From a virus (taxonomy: Duplodnaviria; Heunggongvirae; Uroviricota; Caudoviricetes), in IMG/VR virus record IMGVR_UViG_2548876936_000010: a stretch of DNA of 34,655 nucleotides; one strand, written 5' to 3'. This document shows, one piece after another, positions 301 to 28,317 of the stretch (its first letter is position 1; the number at the start of each line of letters is the position of its first letter). A program made the position numbers and the translations under genes. Below the pieces are notes generated by a model, which did no database searches, was not told where the DNA came from, and was given only the letters and a program-made list of their open reading frames with translations.

Positions 301-1464
301 TCACTCATAATCTTCTGTTTCGTACTCCACATCAGAAAGCCTGACCTCAAGCTCTAAGGACGTCGTGAAGCCGCTATTATTCAGAAAATGTGTCACCTTA
401 GTGATTGTCCAGTCCTGCTCGTCTATGACGCGCTTAAAGCCTGACACTCTGACCGGTGTTTCCGTGTAAATATCTGCACGACCGGTAGCCAGGATGATGG
501 AGAACTCCGCAACGCCCCGTTGCAGTTTATCCCACTTCGCCTGAGCGGCACGCATGGCCTGCGCTTTTGTGGCATATACCGTGGTCAGGGCAAAAACGTT
601 GTCAGCTTCACCTGCCATGTATTCACCTTCGCGCGCTTCCGGTGCTTTTGGCGCTTTCTTCTGCGTGACCGGTTTCGCTTTCGGGTGCTCCAGTGCGCGC
701 AGGTGTTTCTCTTTCTTTTTGCGTTTCAGTTTTACCTTCTGCTTTTGCGGCTTCGGGTCTTTGGTGTGTAACCACTTTGCCGTTACGCCGGTGTAAGCTC
801 CACGGTCAGCAATCGCAAAATGATGACGGTCGCCGTCGCTGCGGGTGATGGTAATCTGCGGGATTTTTTTACCGCTGGCCGTCACCCCCTGCCCCGCTTT
901 GAGAAACAGCAGTTTTCCCATTTTTACCGACACCTCACCGCCGTTGCGTTCAGCAAGGCGGGTCAGGAATTTCGCATCAGACTCCTGCGACTGGTCGATG
1001 TGCGGAATTTTAATTCCGGCCAGTGACGGAGCGACACTGGCTTCCAGCCTGTTACGGGAGGCTATCGCCTCAACAATCGCGCCGAGTGTGGTGTCATGCC
1101 AAGAGCCTTCCCGGCGGGAATTAAGCGTCCCGCGGAAATCTGCACTCCGGGCGCGGATGGTAACCACATCCGGCGCGCCCCGGTGTTCAACCTCATCAAC
1201 GGTAAATTTCCCTTTGCATACCAGGGCAAAACCTTTCCAGCCGATATACACCGTCAGGACAGCGCCACGAATCGGTAGCCCGACCAGCCCATCGGCGTCG
1301 TTCAGTTCAATATCAAGCTGGTCAGCCTCAAAGCCCCGGTTATCCGTCAGGGTCATGCTCATCAGACGGTCGCTGATATTGCCGGTAATATCCCTGCTGT
1401 CGAGCATCAGCATGTAATCCGGCGTCAGCGTACTGCCTGCATCAAATGTCAGCGCATCCAGCAT
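301..1464 (-). CDS. D: Late control / tail protein gpD (387 aa)
   Basis: 387-aa ORF with ATG at 1464; position between U and ogr; length equals P2 D (recalled). Confidence 0.85.
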   Translation of the reverse strand: MLDALTFDAGSTLTPDYMLMLDSRDITGNISDRLMSMTLTDNRGFEADQLDIELNDADGLVGLPIRGAVLTVYIGWKGFALVCKGKFTVDEVEHRGAPDVVTIRARSADFRGTLNSRREGSWHDTTLGAIVEAIASRNRLEASVAPSLAGIKIPHIDQSQESDAKFLTRLAERNGGEVSVKMGKLLFLKAGQGVTASGKKIPQITITRSDGDRHHFAIADRGAYTGVTAKWLHTKDPKPQKQKVKLKRKKKEKHLRALEHPKAKPVTQKKAPKAPEAREGEYMAGEADNVFALTTVYATKAQAMRAAQAKWDKLQRGVAEFSIILATGRADIYTETPVRVSGFKRVIDEQDWTITKVTHFLNNSGFTTSLELEVRLSDVEYETEDYE

Positions 1465-1943
1465 TATCCCGCCTCCGTCATACCCGTGAATTTAGTCGCC
1501 ATACTGCCAGCCTTACCGATGAGCGATTCCGCCTGTTTACCGATATCGCCATAAAGCGCGGCCAGTGATTCATCAACGCGGGTGAGCGACAGCGTAAAAT
1601 CAATTTTTCGGGGTGTGCCGTCTGCAAAGAAAATACTCCCTGTTTCACTCACCCTGCTGATGACATACATGCCGTAAATCATGCCGGTGCCATCCAGCAA
1701 CGGCCACGCCCGACCTTCCTCTGCCATCAGCCTGAGCGTGGTCATCGTCAGCTTGCCGCCGGTCAGTTCGGGATAAAGCACACCGGCCAGCGTGATGTTT
1801 TCCTCACCCACACCGAGAAATTGAAAGGCATCCCGTTTGCCGATACGGGAATTTGACGGCCAGCGATAATCTGATTCACGCTGCATGGTCTGGTGTGGCA
1901 GCGTCTGGCGCATAAAAACAAACATACCTAACGCGAGCATCAT
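1464..1943 (-). CDS. U: Tail protein gpU (159 aa)
   Basis: 159-aa ORF between T and D; stop overlaps D start; synteny and length as P2 U. Confidence 0.85.
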   Translation of the reverse strand: MMLALGMFVFMRQTLPHQTMQRESDYRWPSNSRIGKRDAFQFLGVGEENITLAGVLYPELTGGKLTMTTLRLMAEEGRAWPLLDGTGMIYGMYVISRVSETGSIFFADGTPRKIDFTLSLTRVDESLAALYGDIGKQAESLIGKAGSMATKFTGMTEAG

Positions 1944-1957
1944 TTTTCGTCACCTCC

Positions 1958-4405
1958 TTAACCGTCATGCATCATGCTGGCACGGGCGCGCGCACGTTTA
2001 TCCCGCTCGTATTTTTCGAGCGCATCCTGTAACTGGCGGTCAAGCTGTGTCCCCGGCGCAGTACCACCCGTCAGGCTGATGTGATATTCGTTTTTACTCT
2101 GGTCTACATAAGAGCGGCCAGCCGGTGCCGTGACCGGCTGATAAGCCTGATAGCCTGCATAAGAGCTGGTCGCCGGAATATAACCACCGCTGCCATACGT
2201 GGCGGCTTGAGTTCTGGCGGCGGTCTGGTCAAGTGTGTCTGACTCTTTGTTGATAACACCGAGTTTTTCCAGTACCCAGTCAATACCACTGCGCAGTTTG
2301 TTGAACGCATTAAGCGGCAGCATCAGCGCGTCAGCCAGTGCCTGCCCGAACATGACGCCCGTGTCACGGCAACGGTTCAGGGTGTCCTGGGTGGCTTTGA
2401 CCGGGGCAATCAGGTTTTTAAACCACTGCCACGCGGCCTGTAACTTTTCACCCAGCCAGTCAAACACCGGCTTCAGTGGCGTGAACAGTTCCCCCACCGG
2501 CGCAAATGCCGCTTTCAGCCCTTCAACCACACCGCCAAAGAATGCGCTGACAGGCTCCCAGTATTTACGGATAAGCAACGCCCCGGCGACAATGGCGGCC
2601 ACCACGGCCACAACCGGCCAGCTAATCGCCCCGATGGCCGTCATAACAGCACTGCTAACCGTCGTGAAGATTGCCCCCATTGCGCCTGCTGCCGCGATAA
2701 TGGCATTGATGCCGGTGATAACCGGCCAGGCTACAAGACCAATGGTACCGATGATGCCAATAAGCGCCAGCGCGCCACCGACAATGAGGCCGATGGTTGA
2801 CGCCAGTGATTTGTTTTTCTGGATCCAGCCGTCGAGTTTTAACACATACTTTGTGGCCGTCTGAGTGAGCTTACGCAGTGCGCCTTCCTGCTGGTCAAAC
2901 AGGTCAGTCCCCACTGCCTCATAAGCGGACTGAAACTCTTTAAAGTCACCGCCTAGGTTGTCCTGCATGATATTTACCAGCTCGGCGGTCTTCCCGTCTG
3001 AGGCTTTAAACGCAGCGGTCAGTTTGTCCAGCTTTCCGGTTGAGGCGGCAGTCATCAGCACGGCGGCGGCTGAGCTGGCCTCCTCCCCGAAAATAGTTTT
3101 CATGTATTCAGCCTGCTGGGCAGTACCGAGCCGGTTTTTCTCAAAACTGGCCTGCATTTCTTTCAGAATGGTAAATATTGGCCGGGTGTTTCCCTTGCTG
3201 TCTGAGGTTTTCACTCCAAGCTCTTTGAGTGCATCCCATGCTTTTCCCGTCGGTGCCTGCAGGCGGCTTAACACGGCACGGCTTCCCGTCCCCGCCATTG
3301 AGCCTGTGATTTTTGCATCATGCAGCGCCCCGACCATTGCGGCGGTTTCTTCAATGCTGACACCGGCATTTTTTGCCACAGGTGCGGCATAGGTCAGCGC
3401 ATCGCTCATGCCGTCAAAATCGGCGGCGGTTTTGTTCATCGTCATGGAGAGAACATCCCCGATATGAGCGACCTTATCGTTTGAAAGCTGAAAGGCGGAT
3501 TTCATCCCCATCAGCAGGGCGGCGTTTTCTTCCATCGTGCGACGGTTCGCCAGCGCCATATTCAGCGTGACCGGCGTTGCCGCCTGAATGGCATCAACAT
3601 CCCCACCGGCTTTTGCAATGATAATCTGCGCACCGGCTGCATCATCCGCCGAGGCGGCGGTGTTGTCGCCGAGCTGGCGCGCCTGTTTGCGGAGCGCGGC
3701 CATTTCGGCGGAGTCTTTTGCCACGCCGAGCACAGCCTGTAATTCTGAGTTTTTCTGCGCAAACTCATAACCGGGCATCAGCAGCTTAACTCCGGCCATC
3801 GTTCCCGCCGCCGCAATCCCCACACCGGCAGCGCCCACTGAGGCCATATTTCCGGCCAGTTCCTTTCCGGCCTGATAACGCTGTTTGACTGCGTTAAGTT
3901 TTGCCTGTTGCGCACTGACACGCGCCAGCGCGTCACGCTGCCGGTTAAGCTGCGCGGTGGTTTCACTGATACGGTTTTTCAGCCCCTGCTCATCATGTGC
4001 AAGATTGCGGGTATTAATTCCCACAGCAGCCAGTTCCCGCTGCTGGCGTTTAACGGAATCCGTCAGGCGGTTATATTTCGCCTGTAAGTCCTCCGCCGCT
4101 CGCTTTGCGGATTCCAGCACTTTCGCCTGAGCACGGGTCGGACGTTCGGTATTTTTAAACTGTGTGGCAAGGGCTTCGGCTTCCAGCCGTGCCTTCTCAA
4201 GTGCATGACCAGTCACGGCGAGCTGTGCGCTGGTCTTGCGAAATCCCTCAATATGGGATGCGTGACCGTTCAGCTCGCGCAGTGATTTTTGTGTGTCCCG
4301 GATATCCCCCGACAGCGACTTGCTCGCTGTACGGATGGATTTAAACGGGCGGGATGCCTGGTCAACAGCCCTGAGCAATACCTGTAATTTTACATTGTTA
4401 CTCAT
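1958..4405 (-). CDS. T: Tail tape measure protein gpT (815 aa)
   Basis: 815-aa ORF, Ala/Gln-rich helical N-terminal part, long hydrophobic Gly/Ala-rich central segments, between E/E' and U; ATG at 4405. Confidence 0.9.
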   Translation of the reverse strand: MSNNVKLQVLLRAVDQASRPFKSIRTASKSLSGDIRDTQKSLRELNGHASHIEGFRKTSAQLAVTGHALEKARLEAEALATQFKNTERPTRAQAKVLESAKRAAEDLQAKYNRLTDSVKRQQRELAAVGINTRNLAHDEQGLKNRISETTAQLNRQRDALARVSAQQAKLNAVKQRYQAGKELAGNMASVGAAGVGIAAAGTMAGVKLLMPGYEFAQKNSELQAVLGVAKDSAEMAALRKQARQLGDNTAASADDAAGAQIIIAKAGGDVDAIQAATPVTLNMALANRRTMEENAALLMGMKSAFQLSNDKVAHIGDVLSMTMNKTAADFDGMSDALTYAAPVAKNAGVSIEETAAMVGALHDAKITGSMAGTGSRAVLSRLQAPTGKAWDALKELGVKTSDSKGNTRPIFTILKEMQASFEKNRLGTAQQAEYMKTIFGEEASSAAAVLMTAASTGKLDKLTAAFKASDGKTAELVNIMQDNLGGDFKEFQSAYEAVGTDLFDQQEGALRKLTQTATKYVLKLDGWIQKNKSLASTIGLIVGGALALIGIIGTIGLVAWPVITGINAIIAAAGAMGAIFTTVSSAVMTAIGAISWPVVAVVAAIVAGALLIRKYWEPVSAFFGGVVEGLKAAFAPVGELFTPLKPVFDWLGEKLQAAWQWFKNLIAPVKATQDTLNRCRDTGVMFGQALADALMLPLNAFNKLRSGIDWVLEKLGVINKESDTLDQTAARTQAATYGSGGYIPATSSYAGYQAYQPVTAPAGRSYVDQSKNEYHISLTGGTAPGTQLDRQLQDALEKYERDKRARARASMMHDG

Positions 4406-7333: not shown

Positions 7334-7918
7334 TTAAAAGAGACCTTCTATATCGACTTCAATGCCCAAATAACGGACTGTGCTTTCCAGTTTCTTATGG
7401 CCCAACAGAAGTTGGATCACCCGGAGACTCTTGGTTTTCTTGTAGATTAAGTAAGGTTTTGTTCTTCTCATGGAATGTGTGCTGTACAGCGAATCTTCGA
7501 GACCAAGCTTTTCTACCCACCCATGAAAAATTCGGTTGTATTGCCGGGTTGATATATGGTGGTTAGTTCCGACCCGAGAGCGGAACAGGAAGCCTTTACT
7601 ATGCCAGTTACCGAGCTTTATCAATGCAGTAACCGCTTCCCTTGTCCCTTTGGTTATCTCAAATTGGACAGGGCTGCCGGTTTTCTGTTGCAACACCGTT
7701 GCTCTGCTTGAGACAGAACTGCCATATGCAGCATCTGATACTTTGAGTTTGACCAAATCACAGCCCCGTAGCTTAGTGTCCAAAGCCATGTTGAACAGAG
7801 CTAGATCGCGTGTTTTACCTTCCAACTCAAGTCTAATCCGGATCCCCCAGATATGAGATATCTGAAGTGGCCTTTTTTGACCGATGGTACGGTCTTTATT
7901 CCACGGTGACGTTTTCAT
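7334..7918 (-). CDS. Small stand-alone tyrosine recombinase (about 194 aa, catalytic domain only)
   Basis: ATG at 7918 preceded by AGGAGA; candidate catalytic residues present: R in KLRGCDL, K in QQKTGSPV, HSMRRT (HxxR), LLGHKKLESTVRYLG (H and Y); no N-terminal arm/core-binding domain. Confidence 0.7.
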   Translation of the reverse strand: MKTSPWNKDRTIGQKRPLQISHIWGIRIRLELEGKTRDLALFNMALDTKLRGCDLVKLKVSDAAYGSSVSSRATVLQQKTGSPVQFEITKGTREAVTALIKLGNWHSKGFLFRSRVGTNHHISTRQYNRIFHGWVEKLGLEDSLYSTHSMRRTKPYLIYKKTKSLRVIQLLLGHKKLESTVRYLGIEVDIEGLF

Positions 7919-8024
7919 ATTCAAATCTCCTGCAATGTGGGAGATTTGAGTATGGTTGTCTCTCAAGAGCGAAAATAAGTCAACTATTACTAGTTGTTGC
8001 GCATGTACGTATTCTGTCAATTAA

Positions 8025-8867
8025 TTATTGACAATCATCAATTCTGGAATGATCAAAATCATCATATCGAATTATAGTCTGGTTGACTGTATCTATTGTT
8101 GGTGTCATTTCTGTTATAATATCCTGATAACCTAAAGAGTTAAATACATTTACTAAGGCCTCACACCGAAGGGCCGTAGCAATTACAAAATTATAAATTG
8201 CCAGCCGTTTATTTTCTTGTTTAACTGCAAGAATGAATTCGATAGCAGTATTTTCATCACTTTGGATTGCATTATATAGAGATACTATATTTACCATATC
8301 ATCAGAGAATGTATGTATTGAATCACAAAGGGGAACGTAATGGGCATGATAGTGTGTTTCCCAGCCAATTAATTCAAAAAGTTTTCTGGTTCCTGGATAT
8401 TCAGGTGTATTTGGCCACAATCTATTAAATAGATCAGTTAGTTCTTTTCCCATGCGAATCCTTTCATTTGCTGCTGGATTAGTCATTCCTTTGGATTTTA
8501 AACACTCCAGCCACCGTTTTCCATTACTATGAACTAATTTCTTACTAGCCTTGAGTAATGCTTGTGCATTTTCGCCATCATCTATTGCTATATAAAATTG
8601 ATTGGCAGCCTGTTCTATTATAACCCTAGCTAATACTTCCGATGCTGAAAAGGCTCCTATATTCAAAGAAGAGATAGCCTGATTACTAAGTTCATTCAGT
8701 ACATTAAAGTACTGTAAGACCATCAATTTTTGTTCCACACCCTTTAGGTTGTCTATTTTATTTTTATGCTCCTCAAATTTTGCATGGATATATTTATTTA
8801 TCGCGGCTATTTTTTTTACATCTTCGTCAAGATCAAACGGGCAACGTCCAAACAATTCTTTTTTCAT
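8025..8867 (-). CDS. Hypothetical protein (280 aa), AT-rich cargo gene, function unknown
   Basis: ATG at 8867 preceded by AGGAGA with 6-nt spacer; ends 4 nt upstream of the recombinase gene; no motif I can recognise. Confidence 0.65.
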   Translation of the reverse strand: MKKELFGRCPFDLDEDVKKIAAINKYIHAKFEEHKNKIDNLKGVEQKLMVLQYFNVLNELSNQAISSLNIGAFSASEVLARVIIEQAANQFYIAIDDGENAQALLKASKKLVHSNGKRWLECLKSKGMTNPAANERIRMGKELTDLFNRLWPNTPEYPGTRKLFELIGWETHYHAHYVPLCDSIHTFSDDMVNIVSLYNAIQSDENTAIEFILAVKQENKRLAIYNFVIATALRCEALVNVFNSLGYQDIITEMTPTIDTVNQTIIRYDDFDHSRIDDCQ

Positions 8868-9287: not shown

Positions 9288-9815
9288 TTATTGCGGCATT
9301 TCCGGCCATTCAGGATTTGCAGGATCCACACGGCTGACCAGAACACTGTAGCGTTCCCATGCTTCCAGTCGGCTACGCTCCTCATCTGTTGCCATATTCA
9401 GTCTGACAGAGCGTTCCAGTGGCTGAATGATAGTTTCAGCTTCGGAACGCAAAGCTGACTTCTGTAATTCCGCCAGTTGCAGCTGTTCGTCTGCCGTATA
9501 AATCCGCTTAATCACGGCACCATCCTTAAACATCCATTTACCTGAGTCATCAGCACGTCGGTTGGCGGTAATATCAGGAACCTCGACAACGCTAAAACCT
9601 TCAGGGTTGAGCGTTGAAGCATCTCTGGTGATGCCGACAATTATATTATTCTCATCGTAAACAATCTTTATCGTGTCTTCCTGAAAATTACTTACTTCCT
9701 CATACCAGTTTTTTCCCTCTTCGGACCATAACCAGATAACATCAAAATTTTTTGTCAGTTGATATTGGGCAACAGTTTTTGGATTACCCGCAGTAATATT
9801 TTTTAAATGCTGCAT
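9288..9815 (-). CDS. G: Tail fibre assembly protein gpG (175 aa)
   Basis: 175-aa ORF immediately downstream of H; ATG at 9815; length as P2 G. Confidence 0.8.
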
Positions 9816-9818
9816 AAA

Positions 9819-11792
9819 TTACACCTGTGCGACGTTATACCATGTGCCATTGATGTATTTTTGTATTGGTCTGAATACTGCGGGGTCATCACCATCGACT
9901 TCACCGACAATACCAAGCCCGGTAATTACGTGCCCTGCTTTCTCATACATCACCCCTTTCTGCATGGTCTGGACAACACGTGTGCCAAGTCTGACATCTC
10001 TCACATAGCGGGAATCAAAGTTACCGTAATCCGAGGGATTAACACGCCCCGTAATATTTATGGTTTTATTACTTTGAACGCTTCCGGAGACAAAGCGCAT
10101 AACATGGACGCTATTAGCATAAACATCCAGATTACCATCACCATTTTGTTTAAAGCCCGTGTCATTATCACCCAAAACAATCGAATTACCGCCAAGAGCA
10201 CTGGATGTTCCTATACCCAGAGCACCATTCAATTGACCACCAGATAATGATAACGCCCCAACATCAGCAGCAGTCGGTTTAATGTACGAACTGTAAATTA
10301 CATATACAGTTCCATCTGTCAGGCCTGTTGGTTTATTCGCTGTATAAGTTGGTGATGTATGAATCGTTACGCTGGCGTTACTGGTATAATCCCACTGAAT
10401 ATTAACACCTGTGGCGTAATTACCTATTTCAACATAAACATCATAGGTATCACCGGATGTATTCACCCATGCAAAATTAGTAAATCCAACCGATGTCCGT
10501 CGCCATAACGCACCAGTAAGACCTTTTGGATTTCCATTTCCCGCACGAAGAACAAGTTCAGATATACCAGCCTGCATAGGGGAGTTAACATTATATCCGG
10601 CACCACCAATCAGGCTTATGTAAACCACGGAACTGGCCTGGGGCATGGTTACAGTTGCCAGCCTGAACCATCCTGTACCACCACTAAAAGACATGGTTGT
10701 TGAATTTGTTGCTCCAATATTGCGCAGGAATAATCTTTTATCAGGAATATCCGCACCGTTCTGATCTTTCTGAAGACGTTTTTCAGCATTGTCATAGGCA
10801 GACTTCACCGCTTTTGGTGTTGCGGCCAGTGTTTCAGAATCACTGTTGGTGGCGCTACTGAGCTGAACAAGCCCTTTTCGCGCTGTGGTGGCATCCTGTG
10901 CAGTGTATTTCCCGTTAGCAAGGTCATACGCGACCTTTACCGCCTTTGGCGTTGCGGCCAGCGTTTCAGAATCGCTGTTGGTGGCGCTACTGAGCTGAAC
11001 AAGACCTTTTCGCGCTGTGGTGGCGTCCTGTGCAGTGTATTTCCCGTTAGCAAGGTCATACGCGGCCTTTACCGCTTTTGGTGTTGCGGCGAGCGTTTCA
11101 GACGTGCTGTTGGTGGCACTACTGAGTTGGACAAGACCTTTTCGCGCTGTGGTGGCATCCTGCGCAGTATATTTCCCGTTAGCAAGGTCATACGCGGCCT
11201 TTACCGCTTTCGGCGTTGCAGCCAGTGTTTCAGACGCGCTGTTGGTTGCACTGCTTAACTGAGTAAAACCTTTTGCGGTCAGCGAGGCGTCCGGGTGACG
11301 TCGTGACTGTTCATGCTCTGCAATTTTGTCATCAACGTAATCCTGCGTTGCCATCACCGTTGTGGTGTCAATGGTCAGCTCCACTGAGGCCACACTGCTG
11401 ACGATGATGACCATGCGGCAGGTCTGCGAACGCCCTGAGCCTTCGGCAAGAGCGGGTTTATAACTTTCAGCCATGTTCGCCACGGCAATTAGCGTTCCCG
11501 CATCATCGTACAGGCCAAGCTCACGCATCCAGAAACCGCCCACCTCCGGCGGAATAACCAGCTCTGCGATAATATAATTACTGTTTCGTTTGTCCTGGCT
11601 GATTTTGTTCAGCGCATGTCGCCAGACTTCGCGGATAAGCCCGGTCTGTCCGGCATCCGGGACAGGCAATTTACCACCGCCATCCCCGACGGCCATCGTG
11701 GTAATGTTGACCTTCCGCCCTCCCGGTGCGGTTGCCGCTGCCAGCTTTGCTGCACCGGCAGTGGTGATAACGGTTTTGAATTTTGTGCTCAT
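9819..11792 (-). CDS. H: Tail fibre protein gpH (657 aa) with internal 44-aa tandem repeats
   Basis: 657-aa ORF; N-terminus MSTKFKTVITTAGAAKLAAATAP...; repeat KGLVQLSSATNS.SETLAATPKAVKAAYDLANGKYTAQDATTAR; Gly/Ser/Thr-rich C-terminal half. Confidence 0.9.
   Translation of the reverse strand: MSTKFKTVITTAGAAKLAAATAPGGRKVNITTMAVGDGGGKLPVPDAGQTGLIREVWRHALNKISQDKRNSNYIIAELVIPPEVGGFWMRELGLYDDAGTLIAVANMAESYKPALAEGSGRSQTCRMVIIVSSVASVELTIDTTTVMATQDYVDDKIAEHEQSRRHPDASLTAKGFTQLSSATNSASETLAATPKAVKAAYDLANGKYTAQDATTARKGLVQLSSATNSTSETLAATPKAVKAAYDLANGKYTAQDATTARKGLVQLSSATNSDSETLAATPKAVKVAYDLANGKYTAQDATTARKGLVQLSSATNSDSETLAATPKAVKSAYDNAEKRLQKDQNGADIPDKRLFLRNIGATNSTTMSFSGGTGWFRLATVTMPQASSVVYISLIGGAGYNVNSPMQAGISELVLRAGNGNPKGLTGALWRRTSVGFTNFAWVNTSGDTYDVYVEIGNYATGVNIQWDYTSNASVTIHTSPTYTANKPTGLTDGTVYVIYSSYIKPTAADVGALSLSGGQLNGALGIGTSSALGGNSIVLGDNDTGFKQNGDGNLDVYANSVHVMRFVSGSVQSNKTINITGRVNPSDYGNFDSRYVRDVRLGTRVVQTMQKGVMYEKAGHVITGLGIVGEVDGDDPAVFRPIQKYINGTWYNVAQV
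10791..11276. repeat. About 3.7 in-frame tandem copies of a 132-bp unit inside tail fibre gene H
   Basis: Unit starts ccgc(t/c)tttgg at 10807, 10939, 11071, 11203 (period 132 bp), near-identical copies. Confidence 0.85.
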
Positions 11793-11802
11793 TATTCCTC
11801 AC

Positions 11803-12333
11803 TTATCCGGGGTAAACCGTAATTACATCGCCGTCGTAAGCCATACCACCGGCGAACAGGTAGCCGGGAATGTCCCGGGTAATGTTCAGGCCAATAAGAT
11901 GACGACTTGCAGGTTTGGCATCAGCAATAAGCCGTTCCATTTCCTGATACATTGCCTCTGTGATGCCACTTTCCAGTACACCAATATCAAGCCGGAAGGT
12001 GCCGGGCGGGTCACTGTTTTCCCACCACTCCGTCACGTTGATGAGATAGCCGAGCGGCTCCACCACACGCCGGATTGCACCTATAGTGCCCTTATGACAG
12101 TGGATGAAATAGGCATCGCGGATAACGGTGCGTTTTGTCGCTTCCGGCCACTTTTCATCCCACCTGTCGACCGAAAACGCCCACGCCAGCCACGGCAGCA
12201 GATTTGCCGGACAGGTATCCGGGTTCCACAGTTCACGAATCCTGACCGGCGTTTTTTCAATTTCCGCACAGGCTTTTGCGGCAGCAACTTCAAGCGGTGA
12301 TGAGCCGGTCGGCAGCAGTCGCGAATCACTCAT
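11803..12333 (-). CDS. I: Baseplate assembly protein gpI (176 aa)
   Basis: 176-aa ORF between J and H; ATG at 12333; length as P2 I. Confidence 0.8.
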   Translation of the reverse strand: MSDSRLLPTGSSPLEVAAAKACAEIEKTPVRIRELWNPDTCPANLLPWLAWAFSVDRWDEKWPEATKRTVIRDAYFIHCHKGTIGAIRRVVEPLGYLINVTEWWENSDPPGTFRLDIGVLESGITEAMYQEMERLIADAKPASRHLIGLNITRDIPGYLFAGGMAYDGDVITVYPG

Positions 12334-13234
12334 CCGAGCCTCCGGTCACGACGCGATATTCGGTACAGAAAGACGCCTGCGTACTGTTGAGCACAATGTC
12401 GGCCAGCGGTGCAGTCAGTTCGACACGCTGCACGCCTTCCACATGCAAAGCGGCATAAATGGCAGACAGACGGATGTCACGCCCCAGCCGGTGCTGTGCC
12501 GTGATATACGCTTCCAGTTTTTTCACGGCGGCAGCGCGGATGGGTTCGCTTTCGGGACCAGGGTAAAGGTAAAGCGTGGCGTTTATCTGGTATTCAACAA
12601 TGGCGGCAGACTGCACGGTCACGCGGTCGGCCACCGGCCTGACGTCCTCGCCATTAAGGGCGTTACGCACCACGGCCAGCAGGTCTTCGGATGCGACACC
12701 GTTATTTTCACGTGACAGCACAGAGATGGTGACGCAGGCCGGAGACGGACTGGTGACAGAGATATCCGCGACACGCCCGTCGGCACTGCGACCATGATAC
12801 TGATAGGCACCCACCGACCCGGCGACGCTTAAGCCCTCAAACGCCTGCTGAATACGCAGACGATAATCGGTGTCAGACTCCATCACTGCCGGTGTCGGCG
12901 GAATGGTCGAATCATCTGCCGGGGTGATAGTCAGGCGCGTGGTGTTGTAATTGGCACCAATCACATCAAGGTCATTACCGGCGGCACAGGCCAGCATCAC
13001 CGCCCGTGCGGCCTCATTCACACGCTGACGCCAGATAAGCTCACGATAAGCATTTTCCTCCAGCAGTTTGACGAGAGGCTCGGATTCCAGTGTCAGGGTA
13101 CCGGCGACCGCCTCCTGCTGATCTTCCGGGTAAAGGGAAATCAGTGTCGCCTTGCGTTCAGCGAGAATGCTTTCAAAATCCAGCTCCTCGACCACATCCG
13201 GTGCGGGTAGCTGGTTCAGGTCGATAATCGGCAT
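12326..13234 (-). CDS. J: Baseplate protein gpJ (302 aa)
   Basis: 302-aa ORF; ATG at 13234; overlaps I start by 8 nt; length as P2 J. Confidence 0.85.
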   Translation of the reverse strand: MPIIDLNQLPAPDVVEELDFESILAERKATLISLYPEDQQEAVAGTLTLESEPLVKLLEENAYRELIWRQRVNEAARAVMLACAAGNDLDVIGANYNTTRLTITPADDSTIPPTPAVMESDTDYRLRIQQAFEGLSVAGSVGAYQYHGRSADGRVADISVTSPSPACVTISVLSRENNGVASEDLLAVVRNALNGEDVRPVADRVTVQSAAIVEYQINATLYLYPGPESEPIRAAAVKKLEAYITAQHRLGRDIRLSAIYAALHVEGVQRVELTAPLADIVLNSTQASFCTEYRVVTGGSDE

Positions 13235-21532: not shown

Positions 21533-23305
21533 ATGACCATCACCACAGACACCACTCTTTTACACGACCCGCGTCGTCAGGCGGCGCTGCTGTACTGGCA
21601 GGGATTTTCCGTGCCGCAGATTGCCGCCATGTTGCAGATGAAACGCCCGACGGTGCAGAGCTGGAAACAGCGCGACGGCTGGGACAGCGTTGCCCCCATC
21701 AGCCGTGTCGAAATGAGTCTGGAAGCGCGGCTGACCCAGCTCATCATCAAACCGCAGAAAACCGGCGGTGACTTCAAGGAAATTGACCTGCTCGGACGCC
21801 AGATTGAACGACTGGCACGGGTCAACCGTTACAGTCAGACCGGCAACGAGGCAGACCTTAATCCGAACGTCGCTAACCGCAACAAAGGCGGGCGGCGCAA
21901 ACCGAAAAAGAATTTTTTCAGTGACGAGGCCATCGAAAAGCTGGAGCAGATTTTCTTTGAGCAGTCTTTCGAATATCAGTTGCACTGGTATCGCGCCGGG
22001 CTTGAGCACCGCATCCGCGATATCCTGAAATCCCGCCAGATTGGCGCGACGTTTTATTTTTCCCGCGAGGCGCTGCTGCGCGCCCTGAAAACCGGTCATA
22101 ACCAGATTTTTCTGTCGGCCAGTAAAACGCAGGCGTATGTGTTCCGCGAATACATCATCGCCTTTGCCCGGCTGGTTGACGTTGACCTGACCGGTGACCC
22201 GATTGTCCTGGGCAATAACGGCGCAAAACTGATTTTTCTCGGCACCAACTCCAACACCGCACAGAGCCATAACGGCGACCTGTACGTCGACGAGATTTTC
22301 TGGATCCCGAATTTTCAGGTACTGCGTAAGGTGGCATCAGGTATGGCCTCACAGAGTCACCTGCGCTCGACCTATTTCTCCACCCCGTCCACACTGGCGC
22401 ACGACGCCTACCCGTTCTGGTCGGGTGAACTGTTCAACCGGGGACGCGCCAGCGCCGCCGAACGTGTGGAAATCGACGTCAGTCATAACGCCCTTGCCGG
22501 TGGTCTTCTCTGTGCGGACGGCCAGTGGCGGCAGATTGTCACCATTGAGGACGCCCTGAAAGGCGGCTGCACATTGTTCGACATTGAGCAGCTCAAACGC
22601 GAAAACAGCGCCGACGATTTTAAAAACCTGTTCATGTGTGAATTTGTTGACGACAAGGCATCGGTGTTCCCGTTCGAGGAGCTGCAACGCTGCATGGTCG
22701 ACACGCTGGAAGAATGGGAAGACTACGCGCCGTTTGCCGCAAATCCGTTCGGCTCCCGCCCGGTATGGATTGGTTACGACCCGTCACACCGTGGCGACAG
22801 CGCCGGATGCGTGGTGCTGGCACCGCCGGTGGTGGCCGGTGGCAAATTCAGAATACTTGAGCGTCACCAGTGGAAAGGCATGGACTTTGCCACCCAGGCG
22901 GAGTCCATCCGCAAACTCACCGAAAAATACAACGTCGAATACATCGGTATTGATGCCACCGGCCTCGGTGTCGGCGTGTTCCAGCTCGTGCGCTCGTTCT
23001 ATCCCGCCGCGCGCGATATCCGCTACACGCCGGAAATGAAAACCGCAATGGTGCTCAAGGCCAAAGACGTCATCCGCCGTGGCTGTCTGGAATATGACGT
23101 CAGCGCCACCGACATCACCAGCTCGTTCATGGCTATCCGCAAGACCATGACCAGCAGCGGACGCAGCGCCACCTATGAGGCCAGCCGCAGCGAGGAAGCC
23201 AGCCACGCCGACCTCGCCTGGGCAACCATGCACGCCCTGTTAAATGAGCCACTCACCGCCGGTATCAGCACTCCGCTGACATCCACCATTCTGGAGTTTT
23301 ACTGA
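21533..23305 (+). CDS. P: Terminase large (ATPase) subunit gpP (590 aa from ATG at 21533)
   Basis: ORF 21503..23305; ATG at 21533 after ggcgaggt; divergent from O; length as P2 P. Confidence 0.85.
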   Translation: MTITTDTTLLHDPRRQAALLYWQGFSVPQIAAMLQMKRPTVQSWKQRDGWDSVAPISRVEMSLEARLTQLIIKPQKTGGDFKEIDLLGRQIERLARVNRYSQTGNEADLNPNVANRNKGGRRKPKKNFFSDEAIEKLEQIFFEQSFEYQLHWYRAGLEHRIRDILKSRQIGATFYFSREALLRALKTGHNQIFLSASKTQAYVFREYIIAFARLVDVDLTGDPIVLGNNGAKLIFLGTNSNTAQSHNGDLYVDEIFWIPNFQVLRKVASGMASQSHLRSTYFSTPSTLAHDAYPFWSGELFNRGRASAAERVEIDVSHNALAGGLLCADGQWRQIVTIEDALKGGCTLFDIEQLKRENSADDFKNLFMCEFVDDKASVFPFEELQRCMVDTLEEWEDYAPFAANPFGSRPVWIGYDPSHRGDSAGCVVLAPPVVAGGKFRILERHQWKGMDFATQAESIRKLTEKYNVEYIGIDATGLGVGVFQLVRSFYPAARDIRYTPEMKTAMVLKAKDVIRRGCLEYDVSATDITSSFMAIRKTMTSSGRSATYEASRSEEASHADLAWATMHALLNEPLTAGISTPLTSTILEFY

Positions 23306-24324
23306 TGAGCAAGAAAAAAGGGAAAACACCGCGACCTGCGGCAAAAACAATCACCGCCAGCGCCCCGAAAATGGAAGCATTCACCTTTGGTGAGCCGGTG
23401 CCGGTACTCGACCGCCGTGACATTCTGGATTACGTCGAGTGCATCAGTAACGGCAGATGGTATGAGCCGCCGGTCAGCTTTACCGGTCTGGCAAAAAGCC
23501 TGCGTGCTGCCGTGCATCACAGCTCGCCGATTTACGTCAAACGCAATATTCTGGCCTCGACATTTATCCCGCATCCGTGGCTTTCCCAGCAGGATTTCAG
23601 CCGCTTTGTGCTGGATTTTCTGGTGTTCGGTAATGCGTTTCTGGAAAAGCGATACAGCACCACCGGTAAGGTCATCAGACTGGAAACCTCACCGGCAAAA
23701 TATACCCGCCGTGGCGTGGAGGAGGATGTTTACTGGTGGGTGCCGTCCTTCAACGAGCCGACACCTTTCGCGCCCGGCTCCGTGTTTCACCTGCTGGAGC
23801 CGGATATTAATCAGGAGCTGTACGGTCTGCCGGAATATCTCAGCGCCCTTAACTCTGCCTGGCTGAATGAGTCGGCCACGCTGTTCCGCCGCAAGTATTA
23901 CGAAAACGGCGCACATGCCGGATACATCATGTACGTCACCGATGCCGTGCAGGACCGCAACGATATCGAAATGCTTCGCGAAAACATGGTTAAGTCGAAA
24001 GGCCGCAACAACTTTAAAAACCTGTTTCTCTATGCCCCACAGGGGAAAGCCGACGGCATTAAAATTATCCCCCTCAGTGAAGTGGCGACGAAGGACGATT
24101 TTTTTAATATCAAAAAAGTCAGCGCCGCAGATCTCCTGGACGCACACCGCATCCCCTTTCAGTTGATGGGCGGTAAGCCGGAGAATGTCGGGTCACTAGG
24201 AGATATTGAAAAAGTGGCAAAGGTCTTTGTCCGCAATGAACTCACTCCATTACAGGAGAGAATAAAGTCAATAAATGAATGGTTAGATATGGAAGTCATA
24301 AAATTCCTTGATTATAACTTATAA
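23305..24324 (+). CDS. Q: Portal (capsid vertex) protein gpQ (339 aa)
   Basis: 339-aa ORF, start overlaps P stop; synteny P-Q. Confidence 0.85.
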   Translation: MSKKKGKTPRPAAKTITASAPKMEAFTFGEPVPVLDRRDILDYVECISNGRWYEPPVSFTGLAKSLRAAVHHSSPIYVKRNILASTFIPHPWLSQQDFSRFVLDFLVFGNAFLEKRYSTTGKVIRLETSPAKYTRRGVEEDVYWWVPSFNEPTPFAPGSVFHLLEPDINQELYGLPEYLSALNSAWLNESATLFRRKYYENGAHAGYIMYVTDAVQDRNDIEMLRENMVKSKGRNNFKNLFLYAPQGKADGIKIIPLSEVATKDDFFNIKKVSAADLLDAHRIPFQLMGGKPENVGSLGDIEKVAKVFVRNELTPLQERIKSINEWLDMEVIKFLDYNL

Positions 24325-24366: not shown

Positions 24367-25074
24367 CTATATATACTTCCTTTTTACTCTACTTAATTCT
24401 ATCACTGATGAGGAGTGACAAAATGACAAATTAATAGTATCGATATAATCCAAAATTTGACTCTCAACCTCAATAAAAATATTTTTGGGCCCATTACTAA
24501 TCGATATACCGATTTCATCCAAAACAGCCATCATTTTTCTCTGATGAGTTTTATATTTATAGTCTTTATTTTCCTCTGTAATATGTGCATTGGCTTCCTC
24601 AATAACACATTTGATTCTAGATATTATTTCTAGATAATCTCTCGAAACAGATATATCACCGCCTTGCGCTTCAGGGAACATAACCCTATACCATCTAAAA
24701 AAATTAACTTTCTCTGGATAGATGCTACTTCTTTTAGTTAACTCAGCACTTGCAAATTCTCTAAACATCGTCAGATGACTAGTGTAATTACTATTATTAT
24801 TATTTTTAACTCCAGCGTTATATGTCATCAAAGCAATCATAACACCAAAAACGGTAACAAAAGTTGTTATAAGCCATCCAAACGCCTGAAAATACATTAC
24901 TATACCAGATGTTTTTTCCGCAAAAAATTTTAAGCACTGGCTATCGAAGCATATATCACGCTCATATAGCTTTTCATTCTGAATAGTTTCAAAAAGAGAA
25001 ATTAGCGAAAAAATCAAAAAAAGAGCTGACGACACACCGACAATATATTTGAGAAGTCTAATATTTGCATTCAT
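24367..25074 (-). CDS. Two-TM membrane protein (235 aa) translationally coupled to the RT; candidate effector
   Basis: ATG at 25074 overlaps the RT stop (ATGA, 25071..25074); TM1 YIVGVSSALFLIFSLISLF, TM2 GIVMYFQAFGWLITTFVTVFGVMIALM, then about 150-aa soluble domain; AT-rich. Confidence 0.7.
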   Translation of the reverse strand: MNANIRLLKYIVGVSSALFLIFSLISLFETIQNEKLYERDICFDSQCLKFFAEKTSGIVMYFQAFGWLITTFVTVFGVMIALMTYNAGVKNNNNSNYTSHLTMFREFASAELTKRSSIYPEKVNFFRWYRVMFPEAQGGDISVSRDYLEIISRIKCVIEEANAHITEENKDYKYKTHQRKMMAVLDEIGISISNGPKNIFIEVESQILDYIDTINLSFCHSSSVIELSRVKRKYI

Positions 25075-26261
25075 AATGGTTTTAAAGATGCCAATCTAGA
25101 TTTAAAACACTCCAGTTTTTCTTTAAATGATTCAGAGCGAGTAAGAATAATCATCTTATATCTCGTCAAATCATATTTTCTTTTATACCAATGTTTATTT
25201 TGATTACCTTTCGAATACGACAACTCTAAACTTTTTATAGCTGCATCAATCACAGCAACATCTCTTTTAGATGGCATCGGTTTTATTGCCTGCAACTGTT
25301 TCTTGAATGATTCATATTTTTCATGCCCAACACGGCCAAGCTTATTCACTCTCCCCATACATCTATTGAATTCTTTTCTGTATGCAACACTTGTTTTTGT
25401 GTTATTTTTTGCCGCCAGTAATTTCAAATTATGTATAGATGCCCTGATTCTTTTGACTTCATCGGATGGTAGTCGAGGTGAGTCATAGTCAACTCTTAAA
25501 CCATGTACTTTTATAGGTTCAGATGAACAGTGAAATATTTTAGTTTTGTGCTTATTTATCGGCAAGTCATGCTCAGAAAGCATCCTCTCTATATGGCTTT
25601 GCATTTGAGAAAAATCATAATTACTTATTTTAGATGACACGGTAATATCATCTACCAAACGCGTATAAACAAGTCCTTTCCTCTGCGCACGTCTTACCAC
25701 ATCCCCTTCAACAGCGAATAAACACAAAGTTGCTATATAGCTTGATGTTAAGGCCCCCTGTACGACAAAATCATCCTTAGTACATATATCCACCAAGTAT
25801 TCAAGAGCCTCATCCTTAATATGCAATATCTCCTCAAACACGCTCCTAACCAGATCTCTATGGATATTATCGAAAAAATTACTTATATCCACCTTGAGAA
25901 CTGTTTTTGCTCCACAATGAGCCTTTGCACATGAAACATAGTCACGTTTGACATTAGAATTTAAAACATCATTTTTACTGGGAACTGAACCAAACAAAAA
26001 TGAAGGAAAAACAACCAATTCCTTAAAGATACGTTTATTAATTCTACTCTGTAATAATCTCATTTTAGGATGCAGGGAGTAGACAATCCGTTTGCTTCCG
26101 TCAATTTTGGGAATTTCTTTTAGAGTATATTTCTCATCTAATGATAATTCTGCAATAGCTTTAAGCTCTTCAACAGAAATCGATAAAGCCTTTGACAACT
26201 TTTCAAGTGTTGTGATAGGAGCATTGGATTTGCTGTATGGTTTAAATTTATCCATAAACAT
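25071..26261 (-). CDS. Reverse transcriptase, retron-like (about 397 aa; start ambiguous among ATGs at 26297, 26261, 26255)
   Basis: RT motifs in the translation: IPKIDGSKRIV, LLQSRINKRI, CAKAH...LKVDISNFFDNI, QGALTSSYIATLCL, YTRLVDDITV (YxDD-type), LPINKHKTKI, IKVHGLRV; basic C-terminal extension. Confidence 0.8.
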   Translation of the reverse strand: MFMDKFKPYSKSNAPITTLEKLSKALSISVEELKAIAELSLDEKYTLKEIPKIDGSKRIVYSLHPKMRLLQSRINKRIFKELVVFPSFLFGSVPSKNDVLNSNVKRDYVSCAKAHCGAKTVLKVDISNFFDNIHRDLVRSVFEEILHIKDEALEYLVDICTKDDFVVQGALTSSYIATLCLFAVEGDVVRRAQRKGLVYTRLVDDITVSSKISNYDFSQMQSHIERMLSEHDLPINKHKTKIFHCSSEPIKVHGLRVDYDSPRLPSDEVKRIRASIHNLKLLAAKNNTKTSVAYRKEFNRCMGRVNKLGRVGHEKYESFKKQLQAIKPMPSKRDVAVIDAAIKSLELSYSKGNQNKHWYKRKYDLTRYKMIILTRSESFKEKLECFKSRLASLKPL

Positions 26262-26512
26262 ACCATTCAAATTCAAAGTTACGTACGGTCTTCCCATACT
26301 CAAGGGTGGAACAGCAGAGATGCTTACATCAACAATTGTCAGCAACAGCCTCTGCTATCTTTCGACCGTACGTAATGTCGTCGGCTACGGCACCATCGTA
26401 GTTGACGACGGTGGGGCCTCGCTGATAGGTCCATAGTGGACGCTTTTTTGTAAAAGCAAAAACTGACAATTTAATGTTGTTGACTGCCGCATACCAAGCG
26501 AATCGCTGGTGC
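26262..26512 (-). ncRNA. Candidate structured non-coding leader of the RT (possible retron msr/msd-like RNA)
   Basis: 12-bp perfect inverted repeat ttacgtacggtc (26279..26290) / gaccgtacgtaa (26364..26375) with nested 7-bp repeat agcagag/ctctgct; adjacent hairpin 26377..26409; no ORF. Confidence 0.4.
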
Positions 26513-27312: not shown

Positions 27313-28317
27313 ATGTCAAAAGAAAACACACCAATGGAACCAAGCATAAATATAAAGGCAGACTTCACTGAGATATTAAATTCATCGCCAAAGGGCGTTA
27401 AGTATATATTCAATATTCTCTTCGGAAAAAAACACGCAGAGGCCGAGAGAAGGATTAGGCTATCGAACGCTCAAGATTATGCAGATATGAAAAAGATCAT
27501 ATCTGGAGAAGCAACATATGATAATGAGAGGAACCAAATAACACCTTCTAACCAAGACATTAAGTCATTAATTGTTAGTGCATTGCAGGATGAGGAAATT
27601 AAAAATCTTATAGGCTGCATCAGAAGCGCCTCAGAATACATTAAAGATGATACTGATAACGATGGTGGTCCATCCCAAGACTTTATTAACAGATGGCGAA
27701 GCGATGCGAAACTAATCAGTGAACAGTCTATCCAGTACGTTTGGGGGCGAATTCTAGCGGAAGAAATAAACACACCTCAAACTGTAAGCGTAAGAACCCT
27801 TGATGTAATAAAAAACCTATCAAAAGAAGAGGCTGAATATTTCTCAGAGGTACTTGACTTTATATTTTACGATTCTTATTTGATTGATAATGGAGATACC
27901 AAGAATCCATTCATCTCACCAGAAAAAGGTCATAAATTGAGAGATGCAGGATTAATAGTTACTTTTACTCCTGGAATGTATTTCTCCGAGACATGGGATA
28001 CACAACATTTTGTTCTCAGTGGAGCCACCATACCAAAAGTATTCTACATCAGCAGTTCTGATAAGTATTACTTTATCGATGCAGGCAAAATAACTGACGA
28101 CCCTAAAATTCTGGTATGGAAGTTAACAAATGCTGGCAAAGAACTATATAAAATTCTAAAGAAAGATCATAAAACCAAAGAAGAATCAGTAAAAAAAATT
28201 ATTGACTGGATATTAAACAGCACTAAAGCTTCTGAGTTTTACCATGGGGATATTATTAAACATTCAGACAATAGCCTGTCAGTTGAGAACTTACTGACTA
28301 TAAGCAGAAATAGATAG
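27313..28317 (+). CDS. Hypothetical protein (334 aa), AT-rich cargo at the position P2 uses for tin/old
   Basis: ATG at 27313 with ggag upstream; no Walker A or other motif I can recognise; convergent with A; followed by a hairpin. Confidence 0.65.
   Translation: MSKENTPMEPSINIKADFTEILNSSPKGVKYIFNILFGKKHAEAERRIRLSNAQDYADMKKIISGEATYDNERNQITPSNQDIKSLIVSALQDEEIKNLIGCIRSASEYIKDDTDNDGGPSQDFINRWRSDAKLISEQSIQYVWGRILAEEINTPQTVSVRTLDVIKNLSKEEAEYFSEVLDFIFYDSYLIDNGDTKNPFISPEKGHKLRDAGLIVTFTPGMYFSETWDTQHFVLSGATIPKVFYISSSDKYYFIDAGKITDDPKILVWKLTNAGKELYKILKKDHKTKEESVKKIIDWILNSTKASEFYHGDIIKHSDNSLSVENLLTISRNR

Follow-up and report, generated by a model that had tools for sequence, protein, structure and literature searches.

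A tail-fibre tandem repeat of variable copy number in the H gene of a P2-like prophage

Within the tail-fibre gene H of a P2-like prophage lies a tandem array of 44-residue repeats, and it raises a question in two parts: does the number of repeats really differ among related phages, and, if it does, what would such differences mean for the fibre that the gene encodes? We addressed both parts by analyzing the array, its gene and their relatives, starting from a window of 34,655 nt (the whole stretch of viral DNA under study).

An in-frame repeat array in a P2-type fibre gene

Gene H occupies positions 9819..11792 on the minus strand as a 657-aa open reading frame that matches two Pfam families. 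The first, PF12571, covers aa 1-151 (E=1.3e-58), corresponding to an N-terminal tail-collar/baseplate-attachment domain at 11340..11792 (minus strand). The second, PF03406 (Phage_fiber_2), matches four stretches (E=3e-79; 260.8 bits against a cut-off of 22), the best of which, at aa 170-210, spans model positions 1-41 of 42. Directly downstream lies gene G (9288..9815, minus strand), a tail-fibre assembly chaperone gene (PF02413 Caudo_TAP, E=1.8e-33), and upstream are the P2-type baseplate genes I (11803-12333, PF09684) and J (12326-13234, PF04865), so that the order J-I-H-G is that of annotated E. coli prophages and of P2. The N-terminal 171 residues of H are identical to those of P2 gpH at 165 positions, and the N-terminal domain is 98-99% conserved across 80 IMG/VR loci. 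The remaining content of the window is also that of a P2-like prophage (sheath, tape measure, replication gene A and integrase), and an Rfam scan of the whole window gave no matches. Judged by its PF12571 match, its near-identity to P2 gpH and its J/I/G synteny, H is a P2-type gpH, and its earlier naming as tail fibre H is borne out by gene order and N-terminal identity alike. The units of the array are typical members of PF03406, a curated and long-known repeat family.

The array is the single large one that Tandem Repeats Finder reported in the window (10791-11274; period 132, 3.7 copies, 89% matches, no indels, score 721), and a second repeat search found three copies of 226 nt, starting at 10785, 10917 and 11049 and thus in register, again with a spacing of 132. 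Because 132 nt equals 44 codons, the array stays in frame; divided in the frame of the gene, it runs from 10752 to 11279 on the minus strand, inside H. Unit 1 (TAKGFTQLSSATNSASETLAATPKAVKAAYDLANGKYTAQDATT; aa 172-215, 11148..11279, minus strand) matches PF03406 and is of a distinct "first-unit" type in all relatives examined. Unit 2 (aa 216-259, 11016..11147, minus strand) is 83.3% identical to unit 1 and 91.7% identical to unit 3 at the nucleotide level. Unit 3 (aa 260-303, 10884..11015, minus strand) is a chimera relative to a five-unit allele from E. coli 98208, described below. In unit 4 (aa 304-347, 10752..10883, minus strand) the conserved core is restricted to 10791..10883 (aa 304-334): units 1-3 are full-length, while unit 4 follows the repeat for its first 31 codons and then passes into a linker, NAEKRLQKDQNGADIP. 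This post-array linker (NAEKRLQKDQNGADIPDK; aa 335-352, 10737..10790, minus strand) is common to at least three C-terminal types and to the S protein of phage Mu.

The original prediction described four near-identical in-frame copies of 132 bp, encoding a 44-aa repeat, and this observation is confirmed, with some corrections. The copies are in frame and three are complete, but the fourth holds for 31 codons only. "Near-identical" is apt for the protein, in which units 1-3 share about 39-42 of 44 residues, but not for the DNA, in which the identities among units 1-3 are 83.3%, 84.1% and 91.7%; the first 93 nt of unit 4 are 75-89% identical to the other units (85-89% to units 2 and 3), and no in-register stretch of identity between two units extends beyond 41 nt. 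The unit starts proposed at the time (10807 and onward in steps of one period) have an arbitrary phase that coincides with neither codon nor unit boundaries, and the copy placed at 11203 is partial in that phase. As a control, adjacent 132-nt blocks elsewhere in the window have a mean identity of 28%, with no value above 42% outside the array, compared with 83-92% within it; because this background is so much lower, a chance origin of the array is excluded. Nothing speaks for the open reading frames antisense to the array (e.g., 11017-11262, plus strand, 81 aa) as genes, and we treated them as by-products that arise mechanically from the repeat.

To judge from the pattern of substitutions, the units have been kept as protein. 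The differences between them are mainly transitions at third codon positions: between units 1 and 2 the difference is synonymous at 12 codons and nonsynonymous at 5, and between units 2 and 3 at 7 and 2, respectively. Since most of these differences are synonymous third-position changes, each unit is maintained as protein, under purifying selection, and the array, read in the same way, is not a very recent duplication. This pattern also bears on programmed variation. The window contains a reverse transcriptase gene (25071-26345), which might suggest that the array belongs to a diversity-generating retroelement, as its template and variable repeats, or to some other programmed variation system. 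We regard this as extremely improbable, because the enzyme is a type IV retron reverse transcriptase (PADLOC RT_IV, E=1e-176) with a 2TM partner, at a distance of about 13 kb; the repeats of the array are arranged in tandem and lie in the shaft, not at the C-terminal, ligand-binding end; and where units differ, the changes are mainly transitions at third positions, of every kind and with no preference for adenine. The type of the reverse transcriptase and the mismatch spectrum together effectively rule out H as the target of a diversity-generating retroelement.

Searches of PDB sequences with full-length H and with the array alone returned no multi-unit array, only Mu S/S' (a single unit) and a weak match to S16 gp37. 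An AlphaFold2 monomer model of aa 1-420, built from a 39-sequence alignment, is confident only in the N-terminal domain (about aa 1-140 to 1-151, pLDDT 80-96); the model is unreliable past aa ~165, with pLDDT values of 25-50 in the array and weak helix predictions at "TPKAVKxAYDLA". A 2021 modelling study of repeat proteins reported that the sole homology template for PF03406 is partially disordered and at odds with the predicted model (PMC8078820), and in the cryo-EM study of Mu, gp49 was modelled for its N-terminus only, an earlier crystal structure being cited for the C-terminus (PMC11915804).

Taken together, the array very probably consists of four PF03406 modules that form the proximal shaft of a P2-type gpH fibre, between a conserved attachment domain and an exchangeable distal half. 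The mechanism has four elements, of which the comparisons below show three. Whole periods are gained or lost singly among otherwise near-identical H alleles; the allele in the window differs from a 5-unit allele by one period, with its junction in a tract common to adjacent units, which is the product expected of in-register unequal crossing-over or of replication slippage; and the repeat DNA and the linker serve as homology for the exchange of distal modules. The fourth is proposed: each unit, to judge from fibre architecture, would add a fixed length of trimeric shaft, so that copy number would set the reach of the fibre.

Copy number among related H genes

To analyze copy number more broadly, we compared H genes from several sources. 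P2 gpH has 2 units. In an IMG/VR census of 80 viral contigs whose H N-termini are at least 98% identical, with units counted by HMM, we found 1 unit in 4 loci, 2 in 23, 3 in 3, 4 in 42 and 5 in 8. Complete E. coli genomes were searched with an 800-nt query from which the array had been deleted (400 nt per flank), so that the span of a hit measures the array; both flanks are present in 68 complete genomes, and our counts come from the 60 that were listed. Among these 60, there are 4 units in 21 (span 1288/1289 bp, e.g., PSS-11) and 5 units in 38, of which 37 span 1421 bp and one spans 1534 bp, the latter containing 5 units and a 113-bp insertion farther downstream in the gene. The last genome, E. 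coli PCN033, has a 1024-bp span and a frameshifted 2-unit allele.

A search with the full-length protein gave a consistent picture, returning relatives of 701, 745, 709 and 753 aa: the first two lengths equal 657 aa plus 44 or 88, and the others form a parallel 709/753 series. The 701-aa protein P0142 has 5 units and is found on 220 contigs, while the 745-aa protein P0121 has 6; both are identical to the H of the window over the C-terminal 310 of 310 residues and at 168 of 171 N-terminal residues, and their extra units are of the "...NSDSE...AVKV..." type. Copy number is thus far from invariant, and the prediction that it would differ among related prophages is upheld: P2 has 2 units, the IMG/VR loci 1-5, the complete E. 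coli genomes 4 or 5, and proteins with identical C-termini 5 or 6. On this evidence, we conclude that the H array is a copy-number-variable coding tandem repeat whose alleles, as compared here, differ by whole in-frame units. Our search of the literature found no paper on copy-number variation of the PF03406 repeat in P2-like H genes.

This variation is not spread evenly. Unit number follows the type of the distal half: arrays of the P2 type have 2 units or, rarely, 1, and in the "ALSTEAGNW" and "DKKKGMRKY" types the number is nearly always 4, so that copy number is constant inside most C-terminal types. The variation is concentrated in the distal type of the window ("SFSGGTGWFRLATV"), in which arrays contain 3-6 units. 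Within this type, the 3- to 6-unit arrays occur on many unit-type backgrounds, and therefore several independent events of gain or loss are indicated.

The closest comparison is with the 5-unit H of E. coli 98208 (our locus L082; WP_000104692.1, 701 aa). The H gene of the window equals this allele minus exactly 132 bp, with 4 other mismatches in 1974 nt, all of them in the N-terminal part. The deletion can be placed at 63 successive positions (nt 838-900 of the 98208 gene), each of which reproduces the gene in the window, and unit 3 in the window is the head of unit 3 of the 98208 allele joined to the tail of its unit 4. The junction, whether it arose by deletion, crossover or assembly collapse, lies in a 62-bp tract (10894..10955, minus strand) over which unit 3 of the 5-unit allele does not differ from unit 4. 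This one-period difference, as read from the two alleles, fits in-register unequal homologous recombination or replication slippage, and with its junction in a shared 62-bp tract it lends weight to the earlier suggestion that the array is prone to recombination.

The extent of this instability would depend on the allele. RecA-dependent exchange in E. coli requires roughly 25-30 bp of identity, and between repeats that have diverged it is suppressed by mismatch repair. Greater instability is thus to be expected of alleles with long identical tracts than of the array of the window itself, with its longest run of 41 nt, in which recombination should be much rarer than between perfect repeats. The 8-17% DNA divergence among units would make both recombination and mis-assembly less likely than the term "near-identical" implies.

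The same 62-bp tract raises the possibility that the array is real but that its copy number is wrong, a five-unit allele having collapsed to four units during assembly. Only one assembly has the exact 657-aa protein, in a draft contig (GCA_000446385.2, AIAR01000007.1), and the closest allele from a complete genome has 5 units, from which the H gene of the window differs by one period through the shared tract. A de Bruijn assembler with k <=61 could skip the loop from this tract and so produce exactly the sequence of the window. Draft assemblies do often break or frameshift in the array. In a search with the N-terminal domain, in which all hits are shorter than 300 aa, 46 of the 120 cluster representatives break off within a repeat unit; the label "partial" is common, and others enter frameshifted sequence just past a unit. 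These truncated records also support the expectation that the array is an assembly hazard. The 2-unit allele of PCN033 is a further case, having lost 1 nt at the junction and being annotated as frameshifted. On the other hand, four units is a natural state, since four-unit alleles of the same C-terminal type are found in 21 of the 60 listed complete genomes, including PSS-11; a genuine deletion of one unit would give an identical sequence; and the recovery of the 5-unit P0142 on 220 contigs indicates that assemblers can resolve all five units. We consider a collapse rather unlikely. In practical terms, reported H lengths and "partial" or "pseudogene" labels in P2-like prophages should be treated with care, because draft assemblies break, frameshift and possibly collapse there.

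The array and linker as a joint to the distal half

No record in the phage collection matches H from end to end. Partial matches among the listed phage records have boundaries at gene nt 514, 726, 858, 870, 1021, 1049 or 1056, all of which fall in the array and linker or at their edges (gene nt 514-1056), and many megablast matches end at gene nt 1049/1056, in the post-array linker. Match boundaries in E. coli genomes are similar (about 531-547, 726, 990-1002 and 1049-1056). In P2-like phages, three distal types that are unrelated to one another (SFSGG..., ALSTEAGNW... and DKKKGMRKY...) follow the linker NAEKRLQKDQNGADIP. A boundary in the array is also known from a published case: as outlined in a summary of Garcia et al. 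2008, the gpH of L-413C matches P2 gpH over the N-terminal 207 aa (PMC7460101). This boundary, at aa 207, falls inside unit 1. Haggard-Ljungquist and colleagues in 1992, and Sandmeier in 1994, are said to have concluded that P2, Mu, P1 and lambda trade segments of their fibre genes at conserved motifs, and the L-413C/P2 boundary agrees with that conclusion. Because similarity to other fibre genes starts and stops at the repeat DNA and the linker, these comparisons support a second role for the array, as a homology patch or joint at which the distal, host-range-determining parts are swapped between phages. We also compared the linker by eye with a Gin-type inversion site like that at the Sc/Sv junction of Mu: only part of one half-site of the consensus matches, and there is no invertase adjacent to the linker.

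The part that is swapped is the variable distal half of H (aa 353-657, 9822..10736, minus strand), which is replaced in most relatives. It had been described as the C-terminal third, which understates its extent: the portion past the array (aa 348-657) makes up 47% of the protein. The last ~75 aa of H match the C-terminal end of Mu S (PDB 5YVQ); the distal half also has weak matches to gp37-type trimerisation sequences (PF20744, PDB 6F45), and with P2 gpH it shares 48% identity, confined to the last ~165 aa. Because of its homology to the C-terminus of Mu S, its weak gp37-type matches and its swapping among relatives, we suggest that the distal half is likely to be the receptor-binding, chaperone-dependent part of the fibre, forming its tip.

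The concentration of boundaries in the array and linker suggests a further reading of the copy-number differences themselves: they could be a functionally neutral "accordion", with selection keeping the array as a homology patch for distal exchange. The clustering of match boundaries, the presence of one linker before at least three unrelated C-terminal types as well as in Mu S and S', and the repeat DNA held in common with lambdoid fibre genes at about 84% identity are all as this reading would predict. Purifying selection on every unit instead points to a structural role, and copy number is almost fixed within most C-terminal types. A third observation is a negative correlation between copy number and C-terminal length (Spearman -0.54, p=0.017, 19 combinations), which hints at a constraint on length but is confounded by shared ancestry. 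Weighing these points, we hold neutral variation to be possible but somewhat doubtful, and retain the reading of the units as structural modules of the proximal shaft, in which unit number would affect shaft length.

The correlation was obtained from 77 complete H proteins: the Spearman coefficient between unit number and distal length is -0.54 over all loci and likewise -0.54 over the 19 distinct combinations of the two, values that rest on few independent distal families, without phylogenetic correction. The total length of H has an SD of 44 aa, which is less than would be expected if the array (SD 50) and the distal part (SD 51) varied independently. These values hint that total fibre length may be constrained. 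Since shorter distal parts go with more units, and total length varies less than predicted, repeat number might be a quickly adjustable length tuner that compensates for the size of the distal module or matches fibre reach to the depth of the host surface layer. We judge this to be improbable. If it were true, P2-like phages would have in the array a contingency locus for adsorption.

A conserved repeat that both varies in number and joins host-range modules is relevant to the engineering of P2-type fibres or of tailocin-like particles, and if unit number did tune fibre reach, it would offer a simple handle on adsorption.

Comparison with known fibre proteins

It is instructive to compare the H of the window with fibre proteins already described. 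P2 gpH (NP_046775.1, 669 aa) resembles it in its position within J-I-H-G, in the start of its repeats at aa 172 and in its downstream G-type chaperone. The two proteins differ in that P2 gpH has 2 units and the H of the window has 4, and in what follows the last unit: P2 gpH runs into TVMDETNKKAPLNSPAL..., whereas the H of the window has the NAEKRLQKDQNGADIP linker. Their distal halves are related only in the last ~165 aa, the 48%-identical segment noted above. Nearer still are the H of E. coli 98208, with 5 units, and P0121, with 6, which belong to the allele lineage of the 4-unit H of the window and whose extra units are of the "...NSDSE...AVKV..." type.

Outside the P2-like phages, Mu S/S' (gp49; PDB 5YVQ, 8JU3, 9KI1) has one unit followed by the same linker. 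Residues 105-171 of S align to H 294-364, with the linker at about residues 145-165 of S, and a second copy of the linker opens the variable part of S'; in addition, S 425-503 aligns to H 581-656, indicating a homologous extreme C-terminus. Mu differs in that it has one unit only, attaches through a different N-terminal region and exchanges the distal part by means of its invertible G segment; in P2-like phages, by contrast, this locus lacks an invertase. The side-tail-fibre genes of lambdoid phages (annotated "prophage tail fiber N-terminal domain-containing protein") have ~196 nt of repeat DNA in common with H (about 84% identity, gene nt 531-726), but they encode a different N-terminal domain (PF08400) and belong to a different phage family. 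The same Pfam repeat is also present in collagen-like fibre proteins of EHEC prophages (PMC3368898). The array is real and copy-variable but ordinary: it shows nothing beyond what is already known of mosaic tail-fibre genes.

Broken and disrupted copies of the tail-fibre gene

We compared H, the P2-type tail-fibre gene, with its relatives in sequence databases, using the 120 cluster representatives that match H residues 1-171. Very many of these entries stop inside the array of in-frame 132-bp units, and in other relatives frameshifted sequence starts just past a unit. P0001 is an example of a broken entry: it is only 229 aa long, represents a cluster of 688 member sequences, and ends in ...AQDATTREKALSSSVGHQQL.

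Disrupted alleles are also found in complete E. coli genomes that share both flanks of the array. In E. coli PCN033 (L081, NZ_CP006632.1, locus 1388-3096), the flanks of a two-unit H allele are 99.5% identical to those of the window's H, one base is missing where unit 2 meets the last unit, and the annotation lists a frameshift in the gene; this allele could be a real pseudogene, or it could reflect an assembly collapse accompanied by an error. In E. coli MMC-J-0020 (L084, NZ_CM128549.1), a 113-bp insertion at about locus 2830-2945 cuts the distal half of an otherwise five-unit H, leaving two annotated pieces. The ends of this insertion are terminal inverted repeats (GGAAGGTGCGAATAAGT...ACTTATTCGCACCTTCC), and to judge from its sequence it looks like a MITE.

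Retron, genes at a cargo position and a DUF2806 gene

On the minus strand at window 24367-26345, PADLOC and Pfam identify a reverse transcriptase of 424 aa (PADLOC RT_IV, E=1e-176; also Pfam RVT_1), followed by a 2TM_IV protein of 235 aa (E=4e-85). These matches mark the pair as a retron defence system of type IV, which the prophage carries as cargo adjoining the ORF at 23305-24324. Its msr/msd RNA was not located, because an Rfam scan of the whole window returned no RNA family. A plus-strand gene for a 334-aa DUF2806 protein (window 27313-28317; PF10987, E=1.4e-19), with no PADLOC match, separates the retron from replication gene A.

In P2-like phages, the stretch that separates the sheath gene from G, the tail-fibre assembly gene, serves as a site for cargo. 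Here it holds two minus-strand genes (window 7334-8867), assigned by Pfam and without PADLOC matches: one encodes a DUF5677 protein of 280 aa (PF18928, E=5e-10), the other a short protein of 228 aa that resembles tyrosine recombinases (PF00589, E=1.5e-17).

The distal part of the fibre and the linker that bounds it

Across the window and 80 IMG/VR loci, the number of units in H correlates negatively with the length of the swappable distal part (Spearman -0.54, uncorrected for shared ancestry), as though some limit acted on the overall length of the fibre.

Directly after the array lies a linker (…KDQNGADIPDKRLFLRNIG; window 10737-10790), which has a homologous counterpart in the phage Mu tail-fibre proteins S/S' (PDB 5YVQ, 8JU3). 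The homologous segment in Mu S spans residues ~145-171, and the S/S' fusion chain in 8JU3 carries a second copy of the motif a few residues further along. Therefore, the motif found at the edge of the exchangeable distal segment of H in P2-like phages recurs in both fibre variants of Mu.
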